Shown: one piece after another, positions 72 to 48,631 of the stretch
Layout: every line of letters begins with the position of its first letter
Numbering within the stretch: position 1 is the first letter of the stretch
Source: Thermodesulfobacteriota bacterium
GTDB lineage: Bacteria > Desulfobacterota > Desulfarculia > JACQYL01
Assembly (NCBI GenBank): GCA_963675595.2
Contig: CAXXLZ010000002.1
Span: 4,384,001 to 4,448,000, forward strand
Length of the DNA stretch: 64,000 nucleotides
Reading direction: 5' to 3'
The notes under the pieces: generated by a model
Databases searched by the model: none
Told to the model about the DNA's origin: nothing
The model's input: only the letters and a program-made list of their open reading frames with translations
Position numbers and translations under genes: made by a program

Positions 72-930
72 CGAACAGCTCCTTGATTTTGTCGATCATA
101 TCCGGAATGACCTTCTTCCTTTTCAGGTTTACCCCCATGAGTCGGCGAACCTTGCGTTCCAGGTTTTCGGCGGGAACCTTCAAGAACGACGCCACGGACT
201 CGAAGGCCGTGGGAATGGTGACTTCCGTGCGATAGAGGTCCGCCACGTCCAGCACGAAAGAAATTCCCGCGTCTTCGTGAATGAACCCCAGTTGGGGAAT
301 GGTCCCCGTGGCCGCCACGGCGATGGAAGCCGCGGCCTCCATGACCGTTGCCGCGTGGTTGATGGCCTGATTGGGCAGGTCGGCGAGTTCCGGTTCCCCG
401 CGGTCGTATCTCCGGGCTCTCCATTCAATTCCGTACACCTCGGCGATGCGCTGGTAGGCCGCTCTCATGCGGGCGCCCTCGATCCCCCGAAGCGCGTTGA
501 GATTGGACTGAGGCGGGATTTCCCCCAGGCGCCACAAATACAGGGTCCGGGTTACCTCCCGCCTGCGTTTCGGGTCCGCCCACAGTTCCGCCTGGATTCT
601 CGCGAGGCGCGCTCGCCCCGACGGCAAAGGCGGAACGCTGTAAACGCGGGCTCCGTCTTCTCCCACGGCCAGGTAGCCGGTGCCGTGGCGGGCTAGCAGA
701 CGCATGGCGTCGTGGCTGATGGTGGAGCCCGGCCCCAAGAGGATGAACGAAATGGATTGGAAGGGCAGGGCGTAATCTCCCGAAACCAACTCGTCGGACC
801 CGGCGGTGAGGAAGCGGAGCGTTCCGTCCCGCACGTGCAAATGACCTCGGGAGAGCCATACCAGGCCGTGGCGGTCCCCGTGGGGCACGCGGGCCGTCTC
901 CAGACCGAGCCTTCCCTTGAGGGCGCTCAT
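49..930 (-). CDS. cas1: type I-E CRISPR-associated endonuclease Cas1
   Basis: LGPGSTISHDA, LRGIEGARMR, LGFIH and FVLDVADLY motifs; position after cas6e. Confidence 0.95.
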   Translation of the reverse strand: MSALKGRLGLETARVPHGDRHGLVWLSRGHLHVRDGTLRFLTAGSDELVSGDYALPFQSISFILLGPGSTISHDAMRLLARHGTGYLAVGEDGARVYSVPPLPSGRARLARIQAELWADPKRRREVTRTLYLWRLGEIPPQSNLNALRGIEGARMRAAYQRIAEVYGIEWRARRYDRGEPELADLPNQAINHAATVMEAAASIAVAATGTIPQLGFIHEDAGISFVLDVADLYRTEVTIPTAFESVASFLKVPAENLERKVRRLMGVNLKRKKVIPDMIDKIKELFDAGGGDA

Positions 931-8723: not shown

Positions 8724-9509
8724 TCAATGTCCGAGGAAGTCCGCAGGCGGCATTGCGGAGGATGGCCCATCGGCCTTTCCAGGCTCGAGGATGCAGGCCT
8801 CCAGTGCGGCGCGGAGTCCCAACGCCCGGTTGCGGTGAAACCGTTCCGACCGGAATCCGTGCTTCCACACACCGGAACCGAGTTCGTCGGAAACCACCAG
8901 CAGGGCCGCGGCTCCGATCCCCCGATATCGGGACACCTTGAGCAAGGCGGATAGTTCCATTTCCACGGCCACGGCGCCTCGACTCGTGAAGCGACGAATC
9001 TTGGAGGGGGTTTCTCGATAGGGCGCGTCCGTGGTCCAAATCGCGCCTTCCTTGGCGGGCTCTCCCGATTCACGGCACGTCCGGTGCAGCGCCGAAGACA
9101 TCCCGGGGTCCGCCTGAACCCGCACGCCGGGCAAAGGATAGTGCCCGGAAGTTCCTTCTTCCGACAGCGCCCTGGGCGGAATGACCAGATCGCCGATGCA
9201 CGCTTCGGAGGAAATGGATCCACACCAGCCGAACCAGAAAACCTTCCGCGCCCCCATGGCGGCGAGATTTTCGAGAAGCATCACGGCCTGGGGCGCTCCC
9301 AATGCCGGGCCCGCCAGGAAGATTTCCCGATCCCGGTAATGTCCCACGGCCACGTCCATGCAGCGAAACAACTTTCTCACGGTGTGGGCGGACGTGAGTT
9401 CCACGCTCTCTTCGAAGTCTTCGTGCACGGGAATAAGCAACCCCGTTTCCGGCAGGGGGGGCGAGTTTCTTCCCGCTACGGCCCGGATAATGGCTCGATC
9501 GTCCTTCAT
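8724..9509 (-). CDS. nucleoside phosphorylase (PNP/UDP family)
   Basis: GWCGSI, EEGTSGHY, WTTDAPYRET, AVEMELSAL, VVSDEL motifs. Confidence 0.9.
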   Translation of the reverse strand: MKDDRAIIRAVAGRNSPPLPETGLLIPVHEDFEESVELTSAHTVRKLFRCMDVAVGHYRDREIFLAGPALGAPQAVMLLENLAAMGARKVFWFGWCGSISSEACIGDLVIPPRALSEEGTSGHYPLPGVRVQADPGMSSALHRTCRESGEPAKEGAIWTTDAPYRETPSKIRRFTSRGAVAVEMELSALLKVSRYRGIGAAALLVVSDELGSGVWKHGFRSERFHRNRALGLRAALEACILEPGKADGPSSAMPPADFLGH

Positions 9510-9734
9510 TGCAGTCGCTCTTTGTGTTGTGGGATTCGGTTCAATGCCCGAGCGGAGGGAGAACGGCGCGGATCAAGGGCGCGTCATTCCCGGGTCTCGA
9601 TCCGGACGTCGTGTATCCCGACTCGCTGAATCAACTGGTGGTCCGGGTCCTTCAACAAAATTCGCTTCCCCGATCCGGGGTATGGACATTCACGGCGACG
9701 TCCCGCTGCTTCATGAATTCCCGGATCGAAATCA

Positions 9735-10700
9735 TCAATTCCACCAAAATTGCACGACATACCGCAAAGCAAGGGCCACAATGACCACGGACAGCATGGC
9801 CTTGATAAAAACGGCGGGCATGATCTTCTGTAACCGGGCCCCGCAGTAGATGCCGGCCACTCCTCCCGCGCCGAACAGTAATCCCAGCAGCCAGTCCGGA
9901 GCCACGGTCATGGTGGCCGGGGAGAACAGGGGAACCACGAGTTGATAAAAGGCGACGCCGAAAATTGAGCTTACGAAGGTGCCGGCCAGGGCCGCCCCAG
10001 CCACCGTGTACACGGGAAGTTTGAACACCGCGACGAAAAAGGGCGCCACAATGGCTCCTCCGCCGATGCCGTAAGTCCCTCCCACGATTCCCACAAGGAA
10101 CGCGAGAGCGAAGATGCCCATGGTGGAAAAGGTAAAGGTTTCCCCCATGAACTCATAGGAGATGCTTCGGAGCGAGCATTCCAACGTCTTGACCCGCATC
10201 TCCTCCATGAACCGACGGGCTTCGGCCCCGCCGGCCCGCCTGGCCTGCCGAAGCCGTTCGTTGCACCGTTGTTCCGCCGCTTGCCTTTTTTTCTTGGATG
10301 ACTTGCCCAAGGTCAGGTCCCAGGCCAGTCGAAGACCGATGTAGAGCAGGACCAATCCCACGAAAAGCTTGAAGGCGCGCGGATCGGGCAAATAAAGCAC
10401 TCGGATGACCGCGCCGCCGGCAATACCCGGGATGGTGCCGGCAACCACCACCCAGGTGAGGGGCCAGGCCATGCGTCCCTCCTTCAGATACCGATAGATT
10501 CCCGAAGGGATGGCCACGACGTTGTACACCAGGTTGGTGGGGCTTACCGCCGGACTGACGAATCCCAACACGCTGACCTGGAAGGGAAGCAAAAGGAAGG
10601 CCCCGGACACGCCTCCCATGGAAGTGAAAAAGGATACCACAAAGGACACCAGCGGAGGAATCCACGGTGATACCTCGACCCCGGAAACCGGAAAGACCAT
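9735..10700 (-). CDS. sulfite exporter TauE/SafE family membrane protein
   Basis: SMGGVSGAFLLLP and GGTYGIGGGAIVAP repeats, about 8 TM segments; start after GGGGAGAGG. Confidence 0.88.
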   Translation of the reverse strand: MVFPVSGVEVSPWIPPLVSFVVSFFTSMGGVSGAFLLLPFQVSVLGFVSPAVSPTNLVYNVVAIPSGIYRYLKEGRMAWPLTWVVVAGTIPGIAGGAVIRVLYLPDPRAFKLFVGLVLLYIGLRLAWDLTLGKSSKKKRQAAEQRCNERLRQARRAGGAEARRFMEEMRVKTLECSLRSISYEFMGETFTFSTMGIFALAFLVGIVGGTYGIGGGAIVAPFFVAVFKLPVYTVAGAALAGTFVSSIFGVAFYQLVVPLFSPATMTVAPDWLLGLLFGAGGVAGIYCGARLQKIMPAVFIKAMLSVVIVALALRYVVQFWWN

Positions 10701-43330: not shown

Positions 43331-44002
43331 TCAGGAAATGTCCCGCAGCTTGGACCGTACCAATTCAGTCGATTCCGAAGACGGGTACTTCTCCAGAAAC
43401 TGCTCGTAGAGGGCTTTGGCCTTTTCCTTGTCGCCCAAGGCTTCGTAGAGCCGTCCCAATTCCAGAGAGACGGTCTGCCCGCCGAAGTCTTCCGGTTCTT
43501 TTTGGACCGGGATCAGCACTTCGACTCCATCGGCGTAATCTCCCTTGGCTTCAAGGGCTTGAGCTAGACTGATCCGAACCGACGTCTGAAAGAGGGTATG
43601 GTCTTTCGATTGATCGAGTGCTTCCCGGTAGGCGGTGGCCGCCGAACCGTAGTCCCCGTTTTCGAACAACGCCTTACCCAATTCGGCGGCGACCAGGGCC
43701 GAGCCTTCGGCTCCGGGATGCCGAGCGAGAAAACGTTGCAGCAGGTCGATGCGCTGTTCGGTCGTCTCGGCGGTTCCCGCTTGGGCCAGCAGTTCGTTAA
43801 ACCGGTTCAACGCCGAGCTCGAATACGTCTTGTACAACTGTCCGGCCAGCAGGACCACCACTATGACTCCCGCCGCCACCAGAGCCGTCTTCGTGAATTT
43901 CTTAGGATTCTCCAACACGTAGTTGAGTAACCGAACCGATTTGTCGAAAAACTTGTCGGGCGTCTTCAGCAATTGCTTTCTGGTGATCTTCTCGGCCGCC
44001 AT
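43331..44002 (-). CDS. YfgM-like membrane-anchored TPR protein
   Basis: KITRKQLLKTPDKF N-terminus, single TM, TPR-like helices, KYPSS. Confidence 0.8.
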   Translation of the reverse strand: MAAEKITRKQLLKTPDKFFDKSVRLLNYVLENPKKFTKTALVAAGVIVVVLLAGQLYKTYSSSALNRFNELLAQAGTAETTEQRIDLLQRFLARHPGAEGSALVAAELGKALFENGDYGSAATAYREALDQSKDHTLFQTSVRISLAQALEAKGDYADGVEVLIPVQKEPEDFGGQTVSLELGRLYEALGDKEKAKALYEQFLEKYPSSESTELVRSKLRDIS

Positions 44003-44773
44003 GGGATATCCACCTCGGGGAAAAAGTTTTCGACTCCTTTAGCAGAGCCTGAAGGGTTCGTCAATGACGTGTCGGGTTTTGAGCGTTTCATGTCCGACTT
44101 GTGTGGCCCGCTCTTTGCATTTCCATACCAGAAAAGAACTTGTTCCGCTCCAGCAAGCGGCGGTTTCCGGTCCTTTCGGAAGGACGGCGAAATGCAGGCC
44201 GGTCGGAACCGACCGGTGGCTGCGCTGAATGGAACAAGCCCTTCGTAGGAGATGAACCGTTCCGTCGTCGGGAGCGGGAAGACCGCTCGTTCGCTGGGAA
44301 AGAGTCCCGGAGCGGAGGGTTGGAGGCGTTTCACGGGAAATTGAATGTAATGTGCCCCAAGTGGGCACTTGGTTTCACAACAGGCTGAAATGAGGACGAC
44401 TCGGGCGGTGTCCGAGCCCGCGAGAGGTGAGGTGGGCTTAACGACGATACGCGCCGTGCGAGCGGTTAGTTGCGCCCGGAGCCCGCCTATAGAAAAAACC
44501 TCTGTTTTCAGTAAGTTGCGTTGCACAAGTAGCTCGGCGGTCGGAATCCCCCGGACTTGGTGTCCGGTTCCGGCCGATTTCGATCCGCCAAGAGATGGAA
44601 ATCCCTTCCTGTGTGTCCTGATTTGCGCTCCCTATCGTCCTAAACAGTCAAGGACAGATTCTGTTGGGTGTCCGGATTAGTCTATTTATTTCAGGTAGTT
44701 GCCGCTATATTTCTTGATGCTCTCCTCTGGAATGCTCTTGCTCCTCTGCTTGCCTCCTTCTTCCGACTCACTG

Positions 44774-44790
44774 CCGGCACACCTCTTGCT
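44774..44790 (+). promoter_or_regulatory. candidate sigma-54 promoter for the tandem small genes
   Basis: CCGGCACACCTCTTGCT = GG-N10-GC; IHF-like TTTCAGGTAGTTG at 44689-44701 upstream. Confidence 0.65.
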
Positions 44791-44863
44791 CTAAGACAAA
44801 AGTGACTGATCGGACATCGGTCTTTCGTTCTGAAGCGAAAACTACGCACTGGAGGATACGAAT

Positions 44864-44944
44864 ATGGCAGTGGAAAGCAGCGGAATGGTGACGTTCATGG
44901 GGATTCTGGTTTCCCTTACCGTGGTGGCCATGTTTTTCGCCTAA
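44864..44944 (+). CDS. 26-aa hydrophobic small protein, copy 1 (MAVESSGMVTFMGILVSLTVVAMFFA)
   Basis: GGAGGA RBS at 44851-44856; paralog of the next ORF with several synonymous substitutions. Confidence 0.85.
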   Translation: MAVESSGMVTFMGILVSLTVVAMFFA

Positions 44945-44980
44945 TCACCTGACTGAGTTCAAAAACCAAGGAGGTACATG

Positions 44981-45061
44981 ATGTCTGTTGAAAGCACTGG
45001 AATGGTAACGATCATGGGTTTCGTCGTTTCTCTCACCGTGGTGGCCATGTTTTTCGCTTAA
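44981..45061 (+). CDS. 26-aa hydrophobic small protein, copy 2 (MSVESTGMVTIMGFVVSLTVVAMFFA)
   Basis: AAGGAGGT RBS at 44968-44975 (alternative ATG at 44978); 21/26 identical to copy 1. Confidence 0.85.
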   Translation: MSVESTGMVTIMGFVVSLTVVAMFFA

Positions 45062-45109
45062 TCGATTGCTGCGGAAGTCGACAAACTTAGGAAGTTTTAT
45101 ATATATGTG

Positions 45110-45197
45110 AAGCGGATGCGGGCGGGTGCGAACCCGCGGGATGCCGACCGGTGTTTATACGGGAATCGGCGTCCGCGCACGTCCGCTTTTCATTTTT
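45110..45197 (+). terminator. branched stem-loop followed by T tract (terminator or structured RNA)
   Basis: Outer stem AAGCGGATG/CGTCCGCTT encloses GCGGGT-GCGA-ACCCGC and GGATGCCGA/TCGGCGTCC, then TTTTCATTTTT. Confidence 0.55.
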
Positions 45198-45538
45198 GTA
45201 CGCCCCGTAATCATCGAGTCATGTCCCTCGGCTCTCGGGGGGAGCGGGCCCAAGCCCCGGATATCAAGCAACCTTGCCTTGCAGAGGGCGGGAACCGTGG
45301 AAGTATCGAACTACTTCGACCTCCTGCGTTTCGAATCTTATCAGAGCCTCATCCCTCATCGTTTCCTCTCGGATGGGACCTTTTCCTTACCTACAGCTCA
45401 GTCCGACAACCCGGCTTCTCGGCAGGTGATTCCTCCGGAATTGCATTGGGAGTGCGTGCAGGTTCAGACGCCGGCTCTCCCGAAAGCGGCATCCCGCAAG
45501 TGACCGAAGTGCAACGATTCTGAAGTGGAGGTGCGCGG

Positions 45539-48500
45539 ATGAAACTCTTAAAGGCGCCGAATCCTTCCCGTCGGGGATCGAGACTGCTGCTCCCGGCGAT
45601 GTTGGTGGTCGGTTTGGCGGGCATCCTTATTTTGCTGAGCGATACCGATATCTTTGCCTCCACGTCGGTCGATGAGGCAATGAAGGAGGTAGTGGCGGAA
45701 GCCGGGACGTCATCCGCGGACGCGGGAAAGGCTCTATTACATTGGACGTTGCTCTTATGCGGCGCCTCGGTTTGGATCCTTCGTTCCCATTCCGGCCGAG
45801 CGAATCGGGAGCGGGAGCTCGGCGAAATGCTCCAGCGATACCAATCCATTTTGGAGACCATCGAGGAGGGCTATTACGAGGTTGATTTGGAGGGGAACCT
45901 GACGTTCTTCAACTCTCCTCTCGCCGCCATTCTGGACTACCCCGAAGAAGAGCTCTACGGAATGAACTTCAGGATATACACGCCGGAAGCGAGCAAGCAG
46001 GAGGTTTTTCGGATATTCAACGACGTGTACGTCTCCGGCGTGCCCGTCCGCGGCTACTCCTGGGAAGTTCTGCGGAAGGGGGGCGACAGGCGGGTTATTG
46101 AGGCTTCGGTCTCCTTAATTAGAGACCCGGATGGGGAACCAACGGGTTTTCGCGGCATCATCCGGGACATTACCGAGCGGAGGAGGGCGGAGGAGGCACT
46201 GCGCGAGTCCCGCAGAATGCTTGACGCCGTGATGAACAGCATTCCCCAGGCTATGTGCTGGAAGGGGCGAGATTCGGCCTACTTGGGGTGCAACCATGTC
46301 TTTGCGCAGCATGCCGGTTTGTCCGACCCCGAAGGCATCGTCGGCAAAACGGATGCGGATATCGCTTGTCTTCAGGAGGAGGCGCCGCACAACAGGGAGC
46401 GGGAAAAGGAAGTCATGGAATCCGGCATCCCGGAGCTCCATGTGATCGAGTCGAGAGCCGGCGTCGATTGTCGACCGATCCGGCGCGATACGACTCGGGT
46501 TCCCCTACACGATGCTTACGGCAACGTCATGGGCATTCTTGTGGTGTATGACGACGTGACGGAACTGAAACGAGCCGAAGAAGCGATCAGGGCGAGCGAG
46601 GAGCGTCTGAGAGTGATCATGGATGCCCTCCAGGTAGGAATTCTGCTCGTAGACGCTGAAACCAGGATGATTGTGGATGTTAACCCGGCTCTTGTTTCCA
46701 TTCTGGGCGGTACCAGGGGGCAGATTGTCGGGCGGCCGTGTGTTCTCCCGGGATGCGTGCCCCATGAAACCAAGTGTCCCATCCTTGGTGAAAGATCCAA
46801 GGAATGCAGAGTGGAACGGACTATTGTCGGCGGCACGGGTGAAAGCACCCCGGTGCTTGTCTCCGCCTCTTTGATCGGTCTTGCCGGGCGCGACCACGTG
46901 CTCGAAACCTTTGTGGATATAACGGATCGGGTCCGCGCCGAAGAAGAACTCAGGGTGCAAACCCATCGTGCCTTGAAGGCGGGGCGAGAATTGGCCGAGG
47001 TTAACGAACAGCTTGAAAACGCCGTGTCGCGGGCCAATGTGATGGCCCTCGAGGCACAATTGGCAAATCGGGCGAAAAGTGAGTTTCTTGCCAACATGAG
47101 CCACGAAATCAGGACACCCATGAACGGCGTCATCGGGTTCACGGAGATGCTTCTGGAGACTTCACTCACCGGGGAGCAAAGAGAATGTGCTGAAACCATC
47201 AAACGAAGTGCGGAAGCACTTCTGAACTTGATCGACGACATCCTTGACTTCTCCAAAATCGAAGCGGGGCGGCTTCAACTGGAGAGAGTGGATTTCGATC
47301 CCGAATTACTCCTTTATGACGTGTGTACGATTATTCGGCCCAGAGTGTCTCCAAGTGTGGAAATCGTCTGCCGCATCGGTGACAGTGTGCCTTCGTATCT
47401 CAAAGGGGATCCCCACCGGTTCCGTCAGGTACTGATCAATCTCTTGGGAAACGCGGCCAAATTCACCCAGGCCGGGTCCATCGAGCTTACGTTGGAGATT
47501 CAGGAGGTAATCGGCCACCGCTCAAAAGTGCACGTCCAGGTTCGGGACACGGGTATCGGCGTTCCATCGGACAAGCTGTCCTGTATCTTCGAGATGTTTC
47601 AGCAGGCCGACGGTTCAATGACCCGAAAATACGGGGGCACCGGTTTGGGCCTCTCCATCTGCAAAAGGATCGCCCATCTCATGGAGGGGGAGGTGTGCGC
47701 CGAAAGTGTTCTGGGAAAAGGAAGCACATTTCACTTCTATGCATGGTTCGAAGAGTCCGGCAGGGCGCCTGAAGAAATCCCTTCCGCCCGGCGGCTTGAT
47801 GGGAAAAGAGTACTTGTGGGAGACGGCAATCCGTCGGTTAGGGAAGTTCTGCTGCACACCGTGGTTGCGAACGGGGGTATCGCGGTGTCCGCGGATCATA
47901 TCGACGCGGTCATCGCGGCGGTGGTGGAAGCGGAGAAGGCGGGGACGCCTTTTAACGTCGTCTTGTTGGACCTTTCACTTCCGGGCTCGGAAAGCGCTCA
48001 TGGCATGGTGAAGAGGCTCAGGGACTTGAACGACGGGTATTCGAATATCTCGTTGGTGGCTCTATCGTCCTCTCATGAGAACGGTACCAAGGAAGCGCTC
48101 GAGGCGGGATTCGATGGAGTTCTGAGCAAACCGGTACGCCGCGGAAGGCTCGTCGAAATGGTTCAACGTCTCGGGAAGACCGAATCGAAGTCGCCCGAAT
48201 CGGAGCCGGCGGCCGAGAGCGTGAGGCGATGCGTCGACGACCAAAGCGAAGACCCTTCCATACGAATACTGCTCGTGGAGGACAATCCGGTCAACAGGAG
48301 ACTCACCGAAATGATGCTTCACAAGGCGGGATACAGGGTGGAAATCGCGGACAATGGAGAACAGGCTTTGGAGAAGTTCACTCACCGGCCCGGCGATTTC
48401 GACCTGATTTTCATGGATATCCACATGCCCCGTATGGACGGCTTGAAAGCGGCCGAGATTCTTCGGGAGAAGGGATATGCGGAGGTTCCCATCGTGGCCA

Positions 48501-48631
48501 TGACCGCGGGAGCCGTTGAAGGGGACCGCGTGAAGTGTCTGAAGGCCGGAATGAACGATTACCTCACCAAACCGGTAAAACCTGAGGAAGTGCTGCGGCT
48601 GGTGAGAACCTGGGTGCCCGTCGGAAAGTGA
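45539..48631 (+). CDS. hybrid sensor histidine kinase/response regulator (2 TM, 3 PAS, HisKA, HATPase, 2 REC)
   Basis: [53 protein letters not shown]; GGAGGT RBS. Confidence 0.95.

Follow-up and report, generated by a model that had tools for sequence, protein, structure and literature searches.

The window, by which we mean the whole stretch of 64,000 nucleotides that was analysed, carries two open reading frames in tandem on the forward strand, each of 26 codons followed by a TAA stop: ORF-A at 44864-44944 (translation MAVESSGMVTFMGILVSLTVVAMFFA) and its paralog ORF-B at 44981-45061 (translation MSVESTGMVTIMGFVVSLTVVAMFFA). Both are preceded by a Shine-Dalgarno sequence (SD) that can be read directly from the DNA, GGAGGA at 44851-44856 (+ strand, 7 nt before the ATG) for ORF-A and AAGGAGGT at 44968-44975 (+ strand, 5 nt before the ATG at 44981) for ORF-B. 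A second in-frame ATG of ORF-B is found at 44978, and since it follows the SD by only 2 nt we consider 44981 the likelier start. The two peptides are identical at 21 of 26 residues and share the same build, in which a short polar head containing Glu4 is followed by a hydrophobic stretch of 19 residues that extends as far as the C-terminus (GRAVY of 1.78 for ORF-A, 1.7-1.8 for the pair). Using a repeat search, we delimited the duplication to a direct repeat of 83 nt that begins at the ATG and ends 2 nt beyond the TAA, with 82% identity and unlike flanks.

A putative sigma-54-type promoter, CGGCACACCTCTTGCT, is located at 44775-44790 on the + strand, 75 nt before the ATG of ORF-A. It is followed by a 7-bp hairpin with a T-rich tail (44804-44822, + strand), retrieved both by a terminator-like flag and in the transcript fold, which would sit at the extreme 5' end of the predicted transcript and may serve as a 5' stabiliser or an attenuator. 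Downstream of ORF-B, a compound long hairpin followed by TTTTCATTTTTGT (45098-45205, + strand; inverted repeat, inner hairpin flagged, fold) forms a terminator-like end of the two-gene unit. The pair is located in a gene-poor stretch of 1.5 kb, at 861 nt and 477 nt from the neighbouring genes, and a search of the source genome (G000) for further copies yielded none beyond these two. We put the chances of our overall explanation, a small two-gene operon for inducible membrane peptides, at about even. A preliminary description of this DNA had listed the coordinates, the 21/26 identity, the SDs and a GG-N10-GC element about 75 nt upstream, and had described the flanks of the two copies as dissimilar; all of these statements were reproduced, the repeat being confined to the ORFs and the 2 nt that follow them.

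Protein-coding signal

To begin with the paralogs themselves, ORF-A and ORF-B differ at 15 nucleotides, distributed as 4, 1 and 10 over the first, second and third codon positions (binomial P = 0.0085 for at least 10 of 15 at third positions). At the codon level this corresponds to six synonymous differences and five replacements, as had been noted before, and each of the five replacements is conservative (their BLOSUM scores add up to +1, compared to -2 to -23 in the five other frames). The Nei-Gojobori method gave a dN of 0.094 and a dS of 0.99 (dN/dS about 0.09). One antisense frame has its wobble positions in common with the ORFs and is likewise similar between the paralogs (23/28 identical); its BLOSUM sum is -8, hence non-conservative, and it has neither an SD nor a conserved start.

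For a comparison between strains, we used one contig of run X6, about 96% alike, over positions 44600-45300 (701 nt). It differs from the source at 24 positions, 14 of which fall in 44600-44773, two at 44796-97 and four in 45080-45099 (including one at 45099), with none in 45100-45300 or in the predicted 5' leader (44798-44863). Each ORF carries a single difference and both are synonymous (44929, GCC>GCG in ORF-A; 44986, TCT>TCC in ORF-B), and the only spacer difference (44966) is just outside the SD of ORF-B. The upstream region thus has 14 differences in 174 nt, against 3 in 264 nt for 44798-45061, which comprises the 5'UTR, both ORFs and the spacer (Fisher P = 0.0005), a test that should not be over-read because the stretch after the terminal hairpin is unchanged as well and the divergence is therefore patchy. 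An additional relative was found in a 24-kb kin contig, where the last 26 residues of a singleton gene call of 74 aa (P0002) are the same as those of ORF-A and the frame upstream of them is a different one, which indicates that the leader and its reading frame have changed there while the peptide was kept.

Together, these results support the view that both ORFs behave as protein-coding genes under purifying selection, and we estimate the probability that they are real, translated genes at roughly 0.85. Protein-level selection had been proposed earlier from the substitution pattern, and the claim held up on the codon-position split, on the excess of dS over dN and on the purely synonymous ORF changes in X6. 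The dN/dS comparison across homologs that had been suggested as a check was informative for the paralogs only: between genera dS is saturated, so that no test of selection is possible.

Relatives and genomic surroundings

To find related genes, a profile of the two peptides was searched in six frames against 95 genomes of the class, 16 of which matched at E-values up to 1. The only full-length match to a short frame (E = 0.05 for one genome) was in G001, a genome of another genus in the same family, and consists of a 26-codon ORF with GGGAGA before its ATG. A three-row profile was then run against G001-G004 with E-values up to 10 and matched a 26-codon ORF in G002, which represents a third genus of the family (E = 0.83 for one genome); this ORF starts from GTG with AAGGAG 8 nt upstream and has VESxGMVxFM in common with ORF-A. 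Matches in G003 and G004 corresponded to unrelated frames and were rejected. A metagenome contig (L060) provided a close kin of the G002 copy that differs by a single replacement and terminates one codon sooner, which leaves 25 residues.

In the resulting five-row alignment, M1, E4, M12 and V16 are invariant, the head follows M-x-[VI]-E-[SN], positions 13 and 17 hold residues that are small or polar (G/N ... S/C), and the sequence is hydrophobic to the end. GRAVY is 1.6-1.8 for the whole peptides and 2.0-2.3 for their last 19 residues. The C-termini read AMFFA (G000), AMFLI (G001) and ILLLR (G002), which makes them aromatic in one genus and polar in none. Between genera, 7-11 of 25 residues are identical, compared to 63-68% identity for the QueC protein of the window in the same genomes, which argues for a fast-evolving family. 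As the scores alone are not significant over 95 genomes, the case for kinship of the G001 and G002 ORFs rests on a combination of features that coincide in the sequences: a common family-level lineage, equal ORF length from an SD-preceded start, a long intergenic setting, hydrophobic build and promoter. The preliminary description had anticipated conserved and often tandem homologs. Intact 26-codon ORFs are indeed present in two other genera, and tandem copies in the source genome only.

Beyond the copies named above, broader searches brought no convincing member of the family. A single-peptide search of 61 relatives matched two, namely the source genome itself and a chance match inside a 1778-aa frame. 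In a sample of the phylum, 63 of 401 genomes matched the profile at E-values up to 0.5; we translated the 16 short-frame matches along with L004 and L009 from the class search, among which only L004 resembles the family, and took the long-frame matches, without inspection, as membrane helices of larger proteins. A related-locus search of genome contigs returned 146 pattern matches, with 0 confirmed. We also scanned for the pattern VESxGMVx[FI]M with an AGY serine, which is blind to G001-like or more distant members, and obtained five stretches in genome contigs (one real, on G002's own contig), four in metagenome contigs (one real, L060, the other three being an unrelated frame of 80-93 aa) and none in viral contigs. 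There was no match by tblastn against plasmids and phages with the low-complexity filter on, the best score in the ESM Atlas (0.80) was at chance level, and a search for proteins homologous to P0002 returned P0002 alone. NCBIfam gave 0 families at E-values up to 10, and the best Pfam E-values (0.045-0.69) belonged to models for unrelated membrane proteins or repeats and fell well short of the respective cut-offs, in agreement with the preliminary description, in which the family was not recognised.

On these sequences, the products appear to form an undescribed, fast-evolving micro-protein family that was found only in three genera of one family-level lineage of Thermodesulfobacteriota and in two close kin. 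This restriction refers to the sets searched, and the searches reach close relatives only, since a fast-evolving peptide of 26 residues cannot be traced far.

Gene content around the copies differs in all three genera. In the source genome the unit lies between a gene for a TPR_21 protein (43331-44002, - strand), with the polA and queC genes further upstream, and a gene for a hybrid histidine kinase (45539-48631, + strand) with two PAS domains, HisKA, HATPase and two receivers. The G001 ORF is flanked by a gene without Pfam match on one side and by VanW, AMMECR1 and alpha-2-macroglobulin genes on the other, and the G002 ORF has ComEC on one side and an ABC transporter in convergent orientation on the other. 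A search of G001 and G002 for the kinase brought no match along its full length; the best ones covered residues 209-1027 and 452-1019 at 39-41% identity and were on other contigs. A look for conserved neighbours, recommended in the preliminary description, thus had a negative outcome, and because the neighbours change between genera we draw no link between the micro-proteins and the adjacent kinase. The unit stands alone and its context yields no functional lead.

The putative sigma-54-type promoter

The element at 44775-44790 reads CGGCAC-N5-TTGCT (CGGCAC-ACCTC-TTGCT), with GG at 44776-77 and GC at 44788-89, and predicts a transcription start near 44801. We scored GG-N10-GC sites against TGGCAC-N5-TTGCW using 11 informative positions. 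The source site scores 10/11 (at -89 from the start codon, as for the positions that follow), and promoter-like sites were also found upstream of the ORFs in G001 (9/11 at -228), G002 (10/11 at -99) and L060 (9/11). Over both strands of the source genome (6.79 Mb), 110 sites score at least 10 and 794 at least 9, counts that include true promoters; this corresponds to 0.0036 and 0.026 sites expected per 450 nt of one strand, respectively. Given these rates, the presence of a promoter-like site in three independent genera is far beyond chance. The one X6 difference within the element (44790, T>A) changes TTGCT to TTGCA, which still satisfies the W of the consensus. An SD-preceded start occurs within 300 nt of 70 of the 110 sites in the source genome, and only the site at 44775 leads to a strongly hydrophobic ORF of at most 70 residues.

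The regulatory machinery is encoded in all three genomes, with one rpoN match each (PF04552) and 46, 45 and 26 matches to the activator domain PF00158 in G000, G001 and G002, respectively. No gene for such an activator was found within the window or on the copy-bearing contigs of G001 and G002, and a k-mer comparison of this upstream region with those of 793 other promoter-like sites revealed no clear common activator site. Sigma-54 promoters need an activated enhancer-binding protein and are otherwise off. The promoter type had been proposed before from the GG-N10-GC spacing; with the consensus score in the source genome and similar elements upstream of the G001 and G002 counterparts, we consider it likely that the unit depends on sigma-54. 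To our knowledge, a sigma-54 promoter before such a micro-protein gene is unusual, although the principle is not new. Among the papers listed by word searches of the literature, which cannot find families by sequence, none deals with a sigma-54-driven small membrane protein.

We also observed, 670 nt upstream, a second sigma-54-like site together with a structured, RNA-like stretch of about 240 nt (44104-44376). A DNA search with 44095-44800 found no match in the 94 other genomes of the class.

Possible functions

The best reading of the locus is an inducible single-pass membrane micro-protein. In the mechanism that we propose, transcription would start near 44801 from the sigma-54-type promoter and produce a transcript of about 400 nt containing both 26-codon genes, each with its own SD, and ending at the hairpin at 45098-45205. 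It would presumably remain silent until one of the many sigma-54 activators responds to some signal, after which, judging from the SDs and the promoter type, both peptides would be made in quantity. Each would insert in the cytoplasmic membrane as one helix, its 19-residue stretch spanning the bilayer once. The head probably faces outward, since it holds the sole acidic residue and the only basic residue of the family is the C-terminal Arg of the G002 copy (positive-inside rule). The peptides would then act within the bilayer, most likely as subunits that are made on induction and pack against a larger membrane protein in an accessory or regulatory role; positions 13 and 17, with their small or polar side chains, could provide the helix-helix contact.

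We therefore favour the accessory-subunit role, which two accounts give as the commonest one among characterised bacterial proteins of this size (PMC12648545, PMC11539335). Those accounts describe single-helix proteins below 50 residues that bind a larger membrane protein and are expressed on specific signals (PMC12648545, PMC11539335). Partner binding is put forward tentatively as the mode of action, and we would not be surprised to see it fail: no partner was identified, the neighbours differ in all three genera, and a bulk effect on the membrane would account for the rapid divergence and the tandem arrangement at least as well as a specific partner would. Among such subunits are MgrB, AcrZ, KdpF, CydX and MgtS, which are much more conserved than the present family. 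No sequence relation to any of them was detected, and the micro-proteins described here have no operon or regulon link.

A bulk effect is the essence of a second reading, the main rival, which we consider possible but unlikely. In it the peptides would be growth-arresting, resemble type I toxins or YohP, build up in the membrane on induction and partly collapse the membrane potential or inhibit a bioenergetic complex, bringing the cell to a low-activity state; the tight off-state of the sigma-54 promoter would then take the place of the antisense RNA by which classical type I systems are silenced. Several of the search criteria of Fozo et al. 2010 (PMC2887945), namely a length below 70 aa, a membrane stretch, an intergenic tandem repeat and constant length, describe this locus. 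The long flanks (861 nt and 477 nt), the tandem arrangement confined to the source genome, the doubled dosage that it would bring, the restricted occurrence of the family, its rapid divergence and its changing position in the genomes, and two aromatic residues near the C-terminus in the source genome point in the same direction. So does YohP, a 27-aa membrane protein of E. coli that is reported to lower membrane potential and raise ppGpp (10.1101/2025.05.06.652344). On the other side, no antitoxin RNA was found, a sigma-70-type consensus scan (the only type used) showing no promoter-like site on the minus strand, and complementarity to the mRNA amounts to inverted repeats of just 10-20 nt at 75-90%. 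The SDs are strong and not visibly sequestered, the transcript fold is ordinary (z = -0.15), the peptides of G000 and G001 have no basic residues, the C-terminus is not polar, and Pfam and NCBIfam returned no toxin family. The repeat is limited to the ORFs, unlike that of duplicated zorO-type loci (PMC2887945).

A narrower version of this reading, which we regard as improbable, is a sigma-54-gated membrane brake without antitoxin, in which the peptides would be self-directed depolarising dormancy factors and the structured stretch at 44104-44376 could be a co-regulated RNA partner. If it were true, one enhancer-binding sensor would decide on cell shutdown; more generally, if the toxin-like reading were true, the locus would exemplify a new way to keep a membrane toxin silent.

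What probability remains is shared by an RNA, an exported-peptide and a leader-peptide reading and by the absence of any function. In favour of a regulatory or dual-function RNA under sigma-54 control, with the ORFs incidental or secondary, the predicted leader (44798-44863) is unchanged in the 96%-alike strain X6 and ORF-A and the G002 ORF agree at 26 of 30 nucleotides over codons 3-12, where six common residues with variable codons have identical synonymous sites; sigma-54-dependent small RNAs such as the Qrr RNAs are known. We nevertheless find it very improbable, as the genera keep ORF length, start, SD and hydrophobic character and not the nucleotide sequence, the DNA of 44095-44800 had no match in the 94 other genomes of the class, the paralog dN/dS is low, the fold is unremarkable (same z-score as above) and Rfam gave a single chance microRNA match (E = 0.6) on 43500-45700. 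Less credible still is that the ORFs encode precursors of a secreted signal or of a modified peptide, such as a quorum signal or a RiPP, or else filament or coat subunits. Near-identical tandem short ORFs with strong SDs do resemble precursor arrays; across the three genera, no gene for a maturation enzyme, a protease or a dedicated exporter is kept next to the ORFs, the sequences hold no Cys, double-Gly or prepilin G/E5 motif (the preliminary description had noted the lack of a prepilin leader, an AgrD-type Cys motif and a double-Gly leader), and everything beyond residue 7 belongs to the membrane-spanning stretch. Prepilins are defined by a short leader ending in Gly, a hydrophobic segment and a Glu at +5. 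Type IV prepilins and Flp pilins were rejected, as Gly7 is followed at +5 by the invariant Met12, residue 7 is Leu in G001, and no Pfam pilin model matched. The least plausible of all, in our view hardly tenable, is that the ORFs encode leader peptides through which the hybrid histidine kinase gene further on is controlled by attenuation, or small partners dedicated to this kinase. They do lie 477 nt upstream of it on the same strand with a hairpin in between, and the kinase has two N-terminal membrane helices separated by a short loop; both versions were removed because the context differs across genera, the genes downstream in G001 and G002 being different ones and a full-length kinase counterpart having been found in neither. 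Of the earlier interpretation as a whole, coding under selection, the promoter type and the lack of a described family stand, its words 'highly translated' and 'tightly regulated' are deduced from the SDs and the promoter type, and the signal-precursor and filament-subunit roles receive no support from gene context and the kinase is no conserved neighbour.

Returning to the preferred reading of an inducible membrane micro-protein, one of the closest described parallels is YohP of Escherichia coli, which is of near-equal size (27 aa), has one membrane helix and no catalytic domain, and is encoded by a stand-alone gene. YohP is reported to be induced under unfavourable conditions and to act on membrane properties (10.1101/2025.05.06.652344). 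The present locus differs by its sigma-54 promoter type, its tandem duplication and its unrelated lineage; Pfam and NCBIfam searches of the micro-proteins at E-values up to 10 gave no family match, and it is on this basis that YohP is set apart. The ibs-sib, ldr-rdl and zorO-orzO loci are alike in that short hydrophobic peptides of constant length are duplicated in one long intergenic region over a narrow range (PMC2887945). Their repeat includes the leader and the antisense RNA with a promoter per copy, whereas here it comprises the ORF alone, one promoter serves both copies, the search for an antisense RNA was negative, and the genes combine strong SDs with a non-polar C-terminus of the product. 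The arrangement also recalls the staphylococcal phenol-soluble modulins and delta-toxin, which are arrays of 20-26-residue peptides with their own SDs, no signal peptide and one dedicated activator. Those peptides are amphipathic, charged and secreted, whereas the micro-proteins here are uniformly hydrophobic with one acidic residue and have no exporter nearby.

From their sequences, then, the products look like a new small family within a known broad class, the bacterial single-pass micro-proteins. The find is not surprising in itself, and its value lies in annotation and in small-protein catalogues, as a clean, comparatively well-supported case of a lineage-restricted micro-protein missed by annotation pipelines in a phylum where small proteins have barely been studied. 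Being conserved, the promoter offers an experimental handle, since the activator and its signal would reveal the condition in which the peptides matter. At 81 nt, such genes do not reach the minimum length that common gene callers require. When 1.84 billion representative proteins were searched with the profile, two matches, both kin, were obtained, and the two database entries of the family carry false N-terminal extensions of 17 and 48 residues.

A second sigma-54-like element and a candidate small RNA

We located a second sigma-54-like element, TGGCCCGCTCTTTGCA, on the plus strand of the ORF-poor gap upstream of the micro-ORFs, 670 nt upstream of the first element (44775-44790) and matching 10 of the 11 consensus positions. 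A GC-rich stretch, approximately 240 nt long, comes after it and terminates in a hairpin with the tail TTGGTTTC (44352-44376). The folding of the GC-rich stretch is more stable than that of shuffled sequences (z = -2.24), with 4 of 200 shuffles equalling it. We regard this locus (44104-44376, plus strand) as a candidate sigma-54-dependent small RNA. A search of Rfam returned no match for this stretch, and a DNA-level comparison with 94 other class genomes gave none either.

Three plus-strand copies of the motif GGTGTCCG(G/A), a possible activator site, also lie in this gap, upstream of the promoter, at 44406-44415, 44558-44568 and 44665-44676. The last of these lies inside a 20-nt stretch that is unchanged in the strain of sequencing run X6 (approximately 96% alike), with many differences around it. 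Genome-wide, the motif was observed 426 times versus approximately 317 expected, only a mild excess.

Downstream context of the micro-ORFs

Downstream of the micro-ORFs, a plus-strand gene (45539-48631) encodes a hybrid histidine kinase of 1030 amino acids, with two membrane helices separated by a short loop at its N-terminus, followed by two PAS domains, HisKA and HATPase domains and a pair of receiver domains. The two sister genera (G001 and G002) yielded no full-length counterpart of this kinase. In sequencing run X5, we retrieved a 450-nt contig that is identical to the window over 44835-45186, spanning exactly both micro-ORFs (44864-44944 and 44981-45061) and the hairpin after the second, and that continues past 45186 with 98 further nucleotides unlike the window. 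This divergence could stem from a branch in the assembly, or from another strain in which other DNA follows the unit.

Related micro-ORFs and their annotation

In G002, the unit made of promoter and micro-ORF is flanked on both sides by direct repeats of approximately 150 nt (9417-9560 and 10029-10168 of stretch L062), which are 86-95% identical and 610 nt apart, with ComEC directly preceding the start of the first copy. The same bracketing is seen in L060, a metagenome-contig stretch closely related to G002. These repeats could be the remnant of a segmental duplication, or could mark an insertion. The L060 micro-ORF (221-295, minus strand) differs from that of G002 by one replacement (M19L) and by a stop located one codon sooner, yielding a peptide of 25 residues that lacks the C-terminal Arg; this residue is therefore dispensable, or the gene is drifting.

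The start called for both database entries of the micro-protein family (P0001 and P0002) is spurious and lies too far upstream, so that they run to 43 and 74 amino acids, versus 26 for the product. These overlong calls show how a length floor in gene calling leads to mis-annotation of this family.
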